From positions 64,001 through 128,000 of IMG/VR virus record IMGVR_UViG_3300042975_000100: a stretch of 64,000 nucleotides of DNA; one strand, 5' to 3'. This DNA is from a virus (Duplodnaviria > Caudoviricetes). Position 1 is the stretch's first letter. Each line of letters begins with the position of its first letter. The position numbers and the translations under genes are program-made. This document shows positions 8,702 through 44,178 of the stretch, in pieces. Under the pieces are notes generated by a model. The model was not told where the DNA came from, did no database searches, and saw nothing but the letters and a program-made list of their open reading frames with translations.

Positions 8702-9658
8702 ATGAAAAAGAAAGAAGTTATGCATCTCGTTCCTGAAAAAAATGAGAAGCGCGAAGATAGTGGATTTGGATTTAATGCATCTTCATTGGTTGGAGATGGA
8801 GACGCTCTTCCTGCATTAGAAACCAATGAGCCGGCTAAAAAGAAGAGAGGCCGTCCACGTAAAGAAGATAATGGTGATGGATTCACTGTAGCTAAAAAAG
8901 CTGATCCGAATCCTATCAATTCTGATATGCCTTACGATCAAACGTATAAACAGAATATGATGATGATGTCTGGTACAGTTGCTCAGATCGATGGTCTGAG
9001 TTCACAACTTATGCAGGATCTTGGAGCTGTACGTAACTTACGTAATAGCTTTAAGAAGTATGAGTATATGGGAACAATCGCAGGAGCAGTTACTAGTCTT
9101 ATCGGTAATAAGATCAGCGCTGTGCGAGAGATGAACAGCGTTATCACAAAGTGCCATGACCTTGAGCTTAAGCGTGCTAAGGAGCTTAAAGCCGGAGTGG
9201 ATGACGGTGATGATGATAAGAGACTCATGGATCTCTACTCTGCATTTATCAACAATCCGATGGGTAACCCTGGAGCGAGCATGCCATATGCTAATGTATC
9301 TCAGGCTGATCTTATGTCTGTTGGTGCTAGAGCAAATACCACGAATCTGTTCTCACAGAATGAAGACCCGGGATTTACTCGCTATGAACAGAATCTTACC
9401 CCTCAGCAGAATGCAATGCTGAATGAGGGCAATCCGAACATTGAGACTGTTCTTGTATATGATCAGAGCACACAGGATAAGTATTTTGAGGTAATCGATA
9501 AGAGTACCGGAATGCCTATTCCTAATATGCCTACACCTGGAGAGTTTATCCTTGAAGGATGCGTGCCAGATGTAGTACGTGGCATTGCACGTAACTCAGA
9601 CTTCAATCAGAACTTCCCATTGAAGCTCGTTGGACAACGGGCAGCAAACGAGTATTAA
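8702..9658 (+). CDS. Hypothetical protein with AT-hook
   Basis: KKKRGRPRK AT-hook; GGGAGG RBS; AACA-N6-TA promoter at 8664-8675. Confidence 0.7.
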   Translation: MKKKEVMHLVPEKNEKREDSGFGFNASSLVGDGDALPALETNEPAKKKRGRPRKEDNGDGFTVAKKADPNPINSDMPYDQTYKQNMMMMSGTVAQIDGLSSQLMQDLGAVRNLRNSFKKYEYMGTIAGAVTSLIGNKISAVREMNSVITKCHDLELKRAKELKAGVDDGDDDKRLMDLYSAFINNPMGNPGASMPYANVSQADLMSVGARANTTNLFSQNEDPGFTRYEQNLTPQQNAMLNEGNPNIETVLVYDQSTQDKYFEVIDKSTGMPIPNMPTPGEFILEGCVPDVVRGIARNSDFNQNFPLKLVGQRAANEY

Positions 9659-9675
9659 TTAAAACACACAGTAAA

Positions 9676-9700
9676 GGAGAGAGCCAATGCGGCTCTCTCC
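9676..9700. terminator. Intrinsic terminator
   Basis: GGAGAGAGCC-AATGC-GGCTCTCTCC 10-bp stem. Confidence 0.75.
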
Positions 9701-9722
9701 AATATTGTGTTACGACAGAAAT

Positions 9723-9741
9723 AAAAACCGTTTACAACGGC
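9723..9741 (-). terminator. Small terminator-like hairpin ending the candidate ncRNA
   Basis: Minus strand GCCGTT-GTA-AACGGT followed by a T run. Confidence 0.5.
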
Positions 9742-9747
9742 ATTCAT

Positions 9748-10203
9748 AAATATTTATGCTGGTATGACTGCTTAGGGAAGAAACCCATGCTTGACTCACT
9801 GGCAAAAACCTTAATCTAAGATTTTATAATTGGATTGTGATGATTAACTTTTAAGATCTTAAGTCTACTGGATTAACAAAAAGTTTAACGGCTTAATAGC
9901 TTAATGATAATTGATTAAATCTTAATGATTATCTCTTCATCTTAATTTTAATCAGAACTGGGACTCGAACCCAGAGAGTGACATAGAGTATCTATGCCAT
10001 GCGTTTACCAATTCCGCCATCCTGCTTAAAGTATGTAGATTTTTGGATCATCTACAATGCTATCTTTGTTTGATAGTTTTGCTTTTTGTTTTTGATTCAA
10101 CTGATCAAAAGTTAAGCGATAGCTTTTGTTTTGTACGGTAAAAGCTATCGAAAGACCGCTGAGCCTTTTCTTGGATTTTTACATCATATCAGCAATGATA
10201 CTT
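9748..10203 (-). ncRNA. Candidate ~455-nt structured ncRNA downstream of the 227-aa gene
   Basis: Long-range closing stem (10184-10203 with 9748-9767), four local hairpins, tRNA-like module, UUAA-periodic tract, no ORF of 60 aa or more. Confidence 0.65.
9950..10026 (-). ncRNA. tRNA-like element with non-canonical anticodon arm, no encoded CCA
   Basis: AGCAGGA TG GCGGAATTGGTAAACGC A TGGCATAGA-TAC-TCTATGTCA CTCT CTGGG-TTCGAGT-CCCAG TTCTGAT: canonical D and T arms, 9-bp/3-nt-loop hairpin in place of the anticodon arm. Confidence 0.8.
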
Positions 10204-10204
10204 A

Positions 10205-10888
10205 TCAATATTCGATTTCAATCTCCGTGATCTCAGTCATATGACCAAGAGCAGCGTCAATGTTCACCAGATAGGTATCGATTGCCTCTGCGGCATTTTT
10301 CATCTTCTTAGTGATCTCAGCCGGATCAAGAAGATCTACCTTGTACTGTGCATTCAGCTCAGCCTCACGATTAGCGCGCTGAGTCGACGATGCATTCGTA
10401 GTATTGCCGAATTCGTTGTTAACACGCTCGACAATGTAACGATCAGTTTCTTTGACACGCTTGGTATACATCTTGGATACTGAACTAACGCCATTGGTGA
10501 TAGTACGCATGATGCTCGTAAGTTCATTCTTGTAGTAGTTCTTACGAGCGATAGCAGCAGCGAATGAAAGCGATTCTTTCTCATCGCCATTGATATCGTC
10601 GAACGACTTGAACTTCGGTACTTCGATGTACGTCTTTGCATTTGCATTGAGGATAGCATTTGCAATGGCTTCACGGCGAATGATCTTATCGTTCAGGGAC
10701 TGCCAACGAGCTTTAGCGTCAGCTTCCCAGTCTTCAACAGAGAGACCATTGATGATCTTCTCGGTATTGTCTTTTGTTGTGGTAAATGCTTTCATAGAAG
10801 CAGAATCAATCTGCTTATCGAGCATCTTCTTCTGCGCGAGCGCAGCTCTGAGTGTCATGGTTTCTTTTACCATTTTACATTCCTCCAA
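10205..10888 (-). CDS. Helical coiled-coil protein, DIP1984/DUF6847-like
   Basis: MTLRAALAQKKMLDKQI...NANAKT...LSFAAAIARK...IDAAL...TEIEI resembles the DIP1984-like pattern; GGAGG RBS; highly expressed codon bias. Confidence 0.6.
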   Translation of the reverse strand: MEECKMVKETMTLRAALAQKKMLDKQIDSASMKAFTTTKDNTEKIINGLSVEDWEADAKARWQSLNDKIIRREAIANAILNANAKTYIEVPKFKSFDDINGDEKESLSFAAAIARKNYYKNELTSIMRTITNGVSSVSKMYTKRVKETDRYIVERVNNEFGNTTNASSTQRANREAELNAQYKVDLLDPAEITKKMKNAAEAIDTYLVNIDAALGHMTEITEIEIEY

Positions 10889-11027
10889 TTTAATGATTAA
10901 TAGCTTAACCTTTGCTACTATAGTGTATATGCTGTGATAAATTATTACATTTTTTCGTTATCATAATCAGACGATTAGACATTTTGTTAAAACCAAAATA
11001 TTATATGTTGAAAGGCTGTGTTTTTAA

Positions 11028-43047: not shown

Positions 43048-43926
43048 TTACTTGATCGTAGGATGAATAGTCCAATTCACATTGGAGTATGTGAACGTTA
43101 CATCAATCCCATATTTCTTTTTAATCTCATTTACTACTCTTTGCGGAGTAGCATCGCAAACTACAACAGAATAGTTCCCATAATGGATTTTAGGCATATG
43201 GTTAAATGATGTAGGTCCATAATACTTATAGCGACCAATGCGTGGGGTAAAATAAATTCTGTCACCTTTTTCATCTATAGTGAAGCATGTATCTCCATTA
43301 ATCACAGGAGTGCCACTATCACGATATATAGCAAATGAAGATTCTGGCCATTTGGCATTTACATGGCACCCTATATTCATACCATGTTTAATGAAAAAGA
43401 GATCATCACTATTCTTAATAACTAAATCTCCATTGTCTTTAAATTCGATCTCTACTTCTTTCTTCATCTCTTTTGGCACAGGACTGCTAACTCGGTAAGA
43501 TTTTCTATCCGCTTCCCTGATAGATTCTTTTACCGATTCTTTCTCATCTTCTTCTTTCATAATGCTATCAACGAACTTAGCAGACGTACTAACAACGGAA
43601 TCGGCGAGTACGTCTGAAACCACACCAGCTGTAGTTGGTACCAATTGTGATACAGCATTATGTAATTTTGCTTTGAAGCTAAGTTTGATATCAGAATCAT
43701 TAATTTTTGAAATCATCTTGCTTGCTAATGAAGCGGCTTCATACTCGTTATCCAATCCGGATAATAAATCACATAACTCTGGCAGGGCAACCAGACGCTC
43801 TATAAATTTCCCTATCACTTCTCCGTACACATTGGTTTCTTCTTTGAGTTTCTTTACATCACCGCTGATAAAATACATACCAATTTTCATTTCCAGTTCT
43901 TGTCTTTTGTTCAACTTCATTTTCAA
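43048..43926 (-). CDS. Hypothetical protein
   Basis: 292 aa, GGGAGG RBS, long structured leader. Confidence 0.65.
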   Translation of the reverse strand: MKMKLNKRQELEMKIGMYFISGDVKKLKEETNVYGEVIGKFIERLVALPELCDLLSGLDNEYEAASLASKMISKINDSDIKLSFKAKLHNAVSQLVPTTAGVVSDVLADSVVSTSAKFVDSIMKEEDEKESVKESIREADRKSYRVSSPVPKEMKKEVEIEFKDNGDLVIKNSDDLFFIKHGMNIGCHVNAKWPESSFAIYRDSGTPVINGDTCFTIDEKGDRIYFTPRIGRYKYYGPTSFNHMPKIHYGNYSVVVCDATPQRVVNEIKKKYGIDVTFTYSNVNWTIHPTIK

Positions 43927-44111
43927 ATCCTCCCAAAAAGTTTGTTTATCAAGCTACATAATCAACATTATAGTGAGTAGATTCCCGTAGCTGCTCAATG
44001 GCATTCTGTTGTTTCAACTATTCCCTATCTACGCACTCCCGCTAGCTACCCTGGGCTAGTGGGAGTTCGGTGTGACAGATATTTATTTATACAACTTATG
44101 TCATTCATCAT

Positions 44112-44122
44112 TATAATATATA
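44112..44122 (-). promoter_or_regulatory. Putative early (virion RNAP) promoter motif TATATATTATA; representative of ~18 sites, all on the minus strand
   Basis: Sites near 4327, 7636, 15972, 28396, 30784, 33413, 38128, 41630, 41772, 44112, 46206, 46557, 47045, 49557, 52237, 55814, 57750, 59527, almost all just upstream of a minus-strand gene; resembles phiKZ/AR9 early motifs. Confidence 0.75.
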
Positions 44123-44178
44123 ACTGAAAAGACACAGTTTAACCCACTACTCATTACGAGTAGTGGGATATATTTTGT

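Follow-up and report, generated by a model that had tools for sequence, protein, structure and literature searches.

The DNA analysed here, referred to below as the window, is a 64,000-nucleotide (nt) stretch that comprises bases 64001-128000 of a 144,787-bp IMG/VR virus record (IMGVR_UViG_3300042975_000100; Duplodnaviria, Caudoviricetes). Within it, a gene for a 222-amino-acid (aa) protein on the minus strand (10873-10205) and a convergent 318-aa gene on the plus strand (8702-9658) flank 546 nt that are free of genes. This gap holds a structured RNA of the minus strand (10194-9757, ~440 nt), which begins 10 nt past the stop codon of the 222-aa gene. We found that the gene and the RNA together constitute one conserved, widespread phage module with a fixed RNA scaffold, and that the RNA accompanies every homologue of the gene examined, down to 24-30% identity. 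A preliminary description of the region had proposed a helical protein and a closed non-coding RNA with a tRNA mimic and a periodic UUAA tract; overall, each of the elements it named was present, in place or a few bases off. Its 227-aa gene with a TTG start at 10888 is replaced here by a 222-aa gene that starts at the ATG at 10873, as indicated by a GGAGGA upstream and by an N-terminus common to the homologues. The features of the module, in order along the minus strand, are the following.

10205-10873, minus strand: partner gene for a helical protein of 222 aa (phrog_1491; DUF6847/3KDQ-like fold, predicted homodimer).
10184-10194, minus strand: P1 5' strand, closing helix, UGCUGAUAUGA (single-sequence minimum free energy (MFE) fold and alignment).
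10173-10178, minus strand: P2 5' strand AAAUCC, pseudoknot with the 3' domain (alignment, duplex energies).
10160-10165, minus strand: P3 5' strand GGCUCA, second pseudoknot helix (RNAalifold, covariation).
10034-10150, minus strand: variable central domain with hairpins at 10150-10117 (11 bp), 10110-10090, 10076-10060, and 10056-10034 and CAAAA-rich linkers (MFE).
9950-10026, minus strand: embedded tRNA-like domain with acceptor, D, and T arms intact and no CCA (Rfam tRNA model).
9821-9951, minus strand: heptad-spaced repeats, 11 UUAA units followed by AAUC-type units that run into an invariant AAAAUC (spacing and alignment).
9816-9820, minus strand: Pa 5' strand CUUAG (alignment).
9801-9809, minus strand: conserved U-rich element GUUUUUGCC after Pa 5' (conserved alignment columns).
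9793-9798, minus strand: P3 3' strand UGAGUC, within the Pa loop (covariation).
9781-9786, minus strand: P2 3' strand GGGUUU, just upstream of Pa 3' (alignment, duplex energies).
9771-9775, minus strand: Pa 3' strand CUAAG, after which come the two invariant bases, G and C, of a GCWG motif (alignment).
9757-9767, minus strand: P1 3' strand, closing helix, UCAUACCAGCA (MFE and compensatory changes in relatives).

The MFE of the minus-strand RNA is -119.2 kcal/mol compared to -92.4 +/- 6.3 for shuffled sequences (z -4.25), and none of 100 shuffles was as stable. Covariation was computed on a full-length alignment of 41 distinct related sequences. For the 24 pairs of P1, P2, and Pa taken together, 93.6% of the cells were paired, compared to 70.1% in shuffles and 33-48% when the strands were slid; double changes were present in 21 of these pairs, and the covariation (0.653 vs 0.218) was matched in none of 500 shuffles. 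The closing stem that had been proposed between segments ~430 nt apart, UGCUGAUAUGA with UCAUACCAGCA, is present in the MFE fold and shows compensatory changes in relatives. In the alignment this helix, P1, spans 12 columns, with 93.7% pairing, double changes in 11 of its 12 pairs, and a mean duplex energy of -18.2 kcal/mol for cognate strands vs -8.6 kcal/mol for non-cognate ones. P2 joins the segment after P1 5' to the segment before Pa 3' through 7 bp (89.8% paired, double changes in 6 of 7 pairs, cognate mean -9.6 vs non-cognate -6.3 kcal/mol). The 6 bp of P3 were 89.6% paired vs 53.5% in shuffles, with a covariation of 0.924 vs 0.255 and double changes in every pair (6/6). Pa, a local 5-bp stem of the 3' domain, was 98.5% paired with double changes in 4 of 5 pairs. 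RNAalifold recovered P1, P2, and P3 unaided, and recovered Pa when given the 3' domain.

Because Pa crosses P2 and P3, the core is pseudoknotted. In addition, G-U cells outnumbered A-C cells within the covarying helices (55 vs 18), indicating that the functional molecule is RNA of the gene's strand. We conclude that the region is a closed, structured non-coding RNA with a pseudoknotted core that locks both ends. The single closed folding unit of the preliminary description is thereby borne out, with a core (P1, P2, P3, and Pa) knotted more elaborately than had been described.

Three of the four hairpins originally drawn in the central domain (10150-10117, 10076-10060, and 10056-10034) are found in the MFE fold, and the one at 10110-10090 is not. 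The 11-bp stem (10150-10117) has a compensatory A-U to G-C change in the sister locus L002. Beside it, we observed that GCGGU (10157-10153) can pair with ACCGU (10137-10133), on the minus strand, in a helix whose loop contains the 5' arm of the 11-bp hairpin; this helix and the hairpin each have a compensatory change in L002, and the pairing is a possible extra pseudoknot or alternative fold. For the U-rich element after Pa 5', pairing of GUUUUUGCC with the 5' segment gave the cognate duplex (-6.35 kcal/mol) no advantage over the non-cognate one (-5.61 kcal/mol). That this element forms a U-A-U triple helix like that of an ENE (expression and nuclear retention element) is only an idea.

The partnership of gene and RNA extends across very distant phages. 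A blastn search of the region against 50,697 phage records gave no DNA similarity. At the protein level there are 13 close relatives and, at an expectation value (E) <= 0.001, 450 clusters. At the first nine homologue loci, at least 420 nt without a called gene followed the homologue in 9/9 cases and shared the anatomy of the RNA; the neighbouring genes differed among these loci and included reductases, methylases, DnaB, DNA polymerase III, and dUTPase. A further 68 loci came from scans of viral, genome, and metagenome sequences, including Veillonella and Gemella phages and prophages. (A scan of viral contigs with a single protein query confirmed no relative; alignment-based scans succeeded.) The 3' domain was present in all but seven of 80 downstream regions from homologue loci, and the exceptions comprise the divergent L030 group (inspected visually), a single short contig, and two loci settled by hand. 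The RNA was also present behind three remote homologues (E 1e-9 to 1e-21) and behind a homologue in a human-gut phage. A covariance model of the 3' domain, run on 121 genomes of a single bacterial family, matched three of them, and the protein profile matched strongly in the identical three. This model, R1, misses the copies of T5, L209, and L030, which were recognised by eye and by duplex energies. On the question raised by the preliminary description, whether the regions downstream of homologues hold a covarying closing stem and periodic repeats, we found that this anatomy tracks the gene throughout.

Two of the homologues reside in named phages. In the Bacillus phage BCP8-2, gp026 is a homologue (28% identity) immediately past a tRNA array for which 15-16 genes are annotated, and the RNA, with UCAAAG units, lies in the 505-nt gap that follows gp026 (locus L017, 2501-3640). 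In phage T5, the product of T5.085 is a remote homologue (hhalign 94.8%, E 5e-8), and behind this gene we identified an unannotated RNA of ~350 nt, with a P1 of 16 bp and NAAAG units, at ~43139-43494 of NC_005859 on the minus strand. The whole module can be placed as follows.

43139-44143 of NC_005859, minus strand: T5.085 and its RNA (hhalign, duplex energies, reading by eye).

The annotation of T5 lists eight other 'stable RNAs with unknown functions' but not the RNA behind T5.085. A pattern scan of viral contigs with AATCATTATAAAATCY gave at least 119 matches. None of the 80 of these loci that were checked had Pa or the repeats, and we therefore regard them as chance matches of an AT-rich word.

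The second constant of the RNA, beside its knotted core, is an array of short repeats. Between 9951 and 9844 there are 11 TTAA in 130 nt, a density unmatched elsewhere in the 145-kb record (mean 0.65, standard deviation 0.87 per 130 nt), at spacings of 6, 20, 7, 14, 8, 8, 12, 14, 8, and 7. The genome-wide value of 0.65 per 130 nt compares with ~1.1 predicted from base composition; TTAA is under-represented everywhere in the record save in the repeat tract of the RNA. In 19 lineages, the spacing of the commonest 4-mer peaked at 7 nt (43 cases) and 8 nt (27 cases), with smaller peaks at 13-14, 20-21, and 28, and the repeat units of different clades align in register. The array holds ~12-14 short units spaced by 7 nt or multiples of 7, and the UUAA tract proposed earlier consists of 11 units whose 7-nt register is conserved across clades. 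The unit itself differs among relatives, as listed here.

UUAAG / UAAUC: the RNA studied here and most relatives.
AAUUUA: L014.
CAUGGUUU: L030.
UUCAUCC: L209.
NAAAG: Bacillus phages, T5, L018, L211, and L212.

The unit varies with the clade of the protein while the scaffold persists. This is the pattern expected of a co-evolving binding partner, though it is no proof of one.

Next to the array lies the tRNA-like domain (10026-9950), which scores 30.7 bits on the Rfam tRNA model RF00005, above the gathering score (GA) of 29; the match appears in sensitive mode only, and default filters miss it. The tRNA mimic seen from the letters alone is therefore real. It is not a functional tRNA, having no 7-nt anticodon loop with U33 callable by ARAGORN: its 11-nt 'anticodon loop' is really an 8-bp stem with a 5-nt loop, leaving no usable anticodon loop, and ARAGORN reported no tRNA genes in the window or in the 145-kb record. 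The domain is in normal order in the RNA studied here and in L002, and is circularly permuted in L004/L016, L005, and L014, where the order runs from the T arm through the 3' acceptor strand, a capping loop (with CCA in two), and the 5' acceptor strand to the D arm and the anticodon arm. In other clades, tRNA arrays stand directly before or after the module, or a tRNA begins 5 nt past P1. A tRNA or tRNA-like element is present within the RNA or no more than ~100 nt from the module in 14 of the 19 lineage representatives. We also observed, in L027, L067-L069, and L080, an insertion of ~50 nt inside the repeat tract that contains UAUGGCGGAAACGCAUAUGGG, resembling the D-arm region of the tRNA-like domain here.

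The protein encoded by the partner gene belongs to phrog_1491 (PHROG E 1e-25), which is labelled 'tail fiber'. This label, which is also carried by BCP8-2 gp026 and T5.085, has no support here and is probably wrong. The adjoining BCP8-2 gp025, a 'tail spike protein' at the end of the tRNA array, likewise has a structural label that, as with that of gp026, looks unfounded. Searches of Pfam, NCBIfam, and PADLOC gave no match for the protein, a PDB sequence search gave nothing usable, and no Pfam hidden Markov model, that of DUF6847 (PF20935) included, matched the protein or any of its 12 relatives. The AlphaFold2 model (predicted local distance difference test score (pLDDT) 90.7) consists mostly of helices, along with a small sheet. 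The one structure clearly related to it is PDB 3KDQ from C. diphtheriae (Foldseek probability 1.0, E 0.014), for which VIA gave a Z of 11.6 over 150 of 152 residues, with the next match at Z 7.6; the nearest cluster in the Atlas that bears a Pfam family is DUF6847 (template modelling (TM) scores 0.55/0.68). The suggestion that the protein is DIP1984-like thus agrees with the modelled fold. Because 3KDQ, a protein of ~150 aa vs 222 aa here, is itself of unknown function, this likeness gives no functional explanation.

The protein is predicted to be a homodimer. Its dimer model had an interaction prediction score from aligned errors (ipSAE) of 0.70 vs 0.03 for the best control, with at least 92% of the contacts common to the runs and a partner pLDDT of at least 87; of the proteins with solved structures used for comparison, 20 of 30 that are pairs of one chain attained the mark used for this call, as did 1 of 23 that are single chains. 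TRAP and HutP folds are not among the structure matches listed for the protein, of which the dimer was the only assembly modelled. The ring or filament of the preliminary description, and the roles it offered (anti-defence decoy, toxin/antitoxin-like pair, or scaffold), are hypothetical.

Signals that could govern transcription of the module were found on either side of it.

10916-10927, minus strand: TACA-N6-TA motif 5' of the gene, candidate phage promoter (read from sequence).
9716-9741, minus strand: hairpin resembling an intrinsic terminator, with a U tract, where the RNA likely ends (a metatranscriptome contig stops at 9716, a weak indication).
9676-9700, no strand assigned: bidirectional terminator-like hairpin, common to the convergent gene 8702-9658 (sequence).

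The TACA-N6-TA motif that had been noted upstream of the gene is present at 10927-10916, where it is a candidate promoter as judged from the letters. The C-ending codon bias that had been claimed likewise holds, as the gene ranks second of 34 long open reading frames in C-ending codons (0.25 vs a median of 0.17). The terminator-like hairpin expected after the closing stem is located, with its U tract, at 9741-9727, and is followed by the bidirectional one at 9700-9676. Three studies of wastewater or sludge yielded RNA-library contigs that map onto the RNA, for example 9716-10132 in one run and 9758-10376 in another. Because such libraries can contain DNA, these contigs give weak support for expression only. 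In two of four runs (X17 and X18) the contigs do not cover the flanking genes, which we did not read as differential abundance and did not use. We infer that the RNA is co-transcribed with the gene.

Other observations concern individual loci. Behind the RNA of L004 (3666-6580) and L016 (1779-3066) there are more than 2 kb without called genes, in which ~100-nt repeated segments begin with words like GGTCAGTGGTC and GTTCAGTGGTCG. In L004 (502-1668), an RT-18 RNA (RF03021, 54.6 bits, above GA) is located beside a reverse-transcriptase-like gene, ~1.3 kb upstream of the homologue. In L012 (4128-6666), the DNA polymerase III alpha gene, whole in the sister locus L011, is interrupted by an HNH endonuclease gene, accompanied by a weak group I intron match of 33.4 bits, below the gathering score.

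An Rfam scan of the window gave no family match save tRNA, and together with ARAGORN it excluded ROOL, GOLLD, YrlA, and tmRNA for the window. The earlier remark that the RNA was not recognised as a named Rfam family consequently holds for the window; it does not hold for a sister clade, in which the central domain is RAGATH-19 (RF03096). This motif matched the loci L019 and L022 of Veillonella-type phages with 115.3 and 116.4 bits, respectively (GA 85.6). It gave no match in 9500-11000 at E up to 10, in the whole window, or in other clades at thresholds of 0.1 to 1. The RAGATH-19 model has 141 positions and covers four hairpins of one clade, omitting P1, P2, P3, Pa, and the repeat tract, and it closes with UGGUAAUC, which is the first repeat unit of the sister RNAs. 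Since the motif matches the sister central domain and ends in the first unit, RAGATH-19 is a fragment of this RNA family, and the family has been catalogued only as fragments under that orphan name. In the library searched we found no published text on RAGATH-19 or its function, our literature searches gave nothing on this gene-RNA system, and the T5 copy of the RNA had no Rfam match. There is a precedent for an orphan motif of this kind: RAGATH-18, a motif just downstream of a gene, proved to be the RNA partner of that gene's protein, namely the right-end element RNA (reRNA) of IS607 TnpB (PMC11061315). TnpB differs in being a RuvC nuclease guided by its RNA, whereas the present system has no nuclease domain and no guide-like variable end.

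Among known RNAs, ROOL and GOLLD are similar in that they are large, ornate, pseudoknotted phage or prophage RNAs beside tRNA islands, and GOLLD sometimes embeds a tRNA. The RNA described here is smaller (~340-450 nt), has a heptad array, and always follows one protein gene, whereas ROOL and GOLLD are RNA-only cages without a known protein partner. Neither ROOL (RF03087) nor GOLLD (RF01998) matched the window region at E up to 10, or the 18 related loci at the thresholds used. The pairing of YrlA/Y RNA with Ro (Rsr) provides another likeness, in that an RNA carrying a tRNA-like module without a free acceptor end is encoded beside its protein partner. The YrlA model (RF02553) gave a weak match to the permuted tRNA-like domain of L004/L016 (30.9 bits, GA 69) and none in the window. 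The neighbour protein here differs from a Ro60 ring in being a 222-aa helical dimer model, and the core of the RNA is a pseudoknot with an array rather than a Ro-binding stem; the neighbouring genes that were checked had no Pfam match, and no whole-record search aimed at TROVE (Ro60/Rsr) was made. tmRNA (RF00023) was rejected: ARAGORN found none, and the fragmentary matches of 16-23 bits in L004, L014, and L016 were the only ones obtained and are accounted for by the permuted T arm and acceptor. As to the array, HutP reads UAG with 4-nt spacers, which amounts to a period of 7. TRAP and HutP therefore resemble the present case in using short units at a fixed short period, here UAA-type units with a period of 7-8. 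They are beta-rich rings on mRNA leaders, in contrast to an all-helical dimer model and a closed stand-alone RNA.

Our preferred model is the following. The 5' segment pairs three times with the 3' domain through P1, P2, and P3, and the knotted core so formed would protect the ends and hold the array out. Between the locked ends lie the clade-variable domain, with its hairpins and tRNA-like module in the RNA studied here, and the array of units. Dimers of the helical protein would then bind the heptad array unit after unit, following the TRAP/HutP logic on periodic triplets, to yield a stable ribonucleoprotein particle. During infection such a particle may, for instance, sequester a host factor that binds tRNA or act as a decoy for it. 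We consider the chances about even that the protein binds the array and forms a particle. Because the module sits in or beside tRNA islands and tRNA-shaped modules have repeatedly been built into it, the particle most likely concerns tRNA biology or translation, which is our best guess at its role. The model as a whole would describe a new class of phage ribonucleoprotein, in which DUF6847-like dimers line up along a 7-nt array on a pseudoknot-locked scaffold RNA with tRNA-shaped modules, some of them permuted. It would influence tRNA biology or translation, perhaps as a decoy or sponge for host factors directed at tRNAs, in hundreds of phage lineages, including T5. We hold this complete reading tentatively, with a probability of roughly 0.3.

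Several observations weigh against the model. The protein is near-neutral to acidic (isoelectric point 5.4-6.2 for 11 of the 13 members), an uncommon property among RNA binders, and it has no known RNA-binding fold. The repeat tract is partly paired in the single-sequence MFE fold and therefore may not be single-stranded. A host factor or a tRNA, rather than the neighbour protein, could be the ligand of the repeats, and ROOL and GOLLD fill the same niche without any known protein. In some clades, the RNA begins 50-108 nt past the stop codon, behind a hairpin (L024 and L032), so that it may have its own promoter. Finally, DNA is possibly included among the RNA-library contigs.

The main rival to the ribonucleoprotein model is that the RNA works by itself or together with a host partner, in the manner of ROOL and GOLLD, folding or assembling by itself while the heptad units bind a host factor or tRNAs, and that the protein works in the same pathway or is merely co-expressed. 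The example of those two RNAs, phage-borne near tRNA islands and with no protein partner known, argues for this possibility, as do the tRNA adjacency of the module and the character of the protein, which is not basic and has no RNA-binding fold. What speaks against it is the adjacency of gene and RNA, kept across very distant phages with unrelated neighbourhoods, and the matching presence and absence of the two in the 121 genomes. A repeat unit that varies with the clade of the protein is, moreover, unlike what a conserved host partner would predict. We regard action of the RNA without its neighbour as a possibility to be taken seriously. The remaining alternatives fit poorly.

It is conceivable that the pair is a type III-like toxin-antitoxin or abortive system in which the repeat RNA neutralises an adjacent toxic protein, as ToxI does ToxN, and the strict linkage of a repeat-bearing RNA to an adjoining small protein gene would suit such a pair. 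However, antitoxins of the ToxI type consist of 34-36-nt tandem repeats that precede the gene of an endoribonuclease toxin, whereas the units here are 7 nt long, lie inside a large knotted scaffold, and are downstream of the gene. Furthermore, the helical dimer model has no nuclease-like fold, there is no PADLOC match, and the module is found in lytic phages such as T5, all of which make a toxin-antitoxin pair improbable. A cis-acting role, either as a 3' untranslated region that stabilises or regulates the mRNA of the gene or as a protein-controlled leader or attenuator (antitermination of the TRAP/HutP type) for a downstream tRNA array, seems unlikely as well. It draws on the resemblance of periodic triplets with 4-nt spacers to HutP sites and on Veillonella-type phages, where a hairpin and a tRNA array come after the RNA. 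In the window, however, terminators and a convergent gene follow, so there is nothing downstream to control; four covarying helices joining the ends of a 350-450-nt RNA far exceed the needs of an attenuator, and separate RNA-library contigs on the RNA alone point, weakly, in the same direction. Least probable of all is an element acting as DNA, such as a replication origin or iterons bound by the protein. An AT-rich repeat array does adjoin replication genes in several phages, but the excess of G-U over A-C is strand-specific and meaningful only in RNA, a spacing of 7 bp is off the helical phasing, the pseudoknots are long-range, and RNA-library contigs cover the region.

Large structured phage RNAs beside tRNA islands, such as ROOL and GOLLD, are abundant and their role is mysterious; the strictly linked protein gene of the present module provides an experimental handle. 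The module occurs in tractable phages, T5 of E. coli and BCP8-2-type phages of Bacillus cereus, in both of which the gene is mislabelled 'tail fiber protein' and the RNA is unannotated. It is of interest for RNA structure because of its four covarying long-range helices with pseudoknots, a heptad array that varies among clades, and tRNA-like modules that occur in the usual as well as in a circularly permuted order. Of the orphan motifs in Rfam, at least one, RAGATH-19, is a piece of this much larger RNA.

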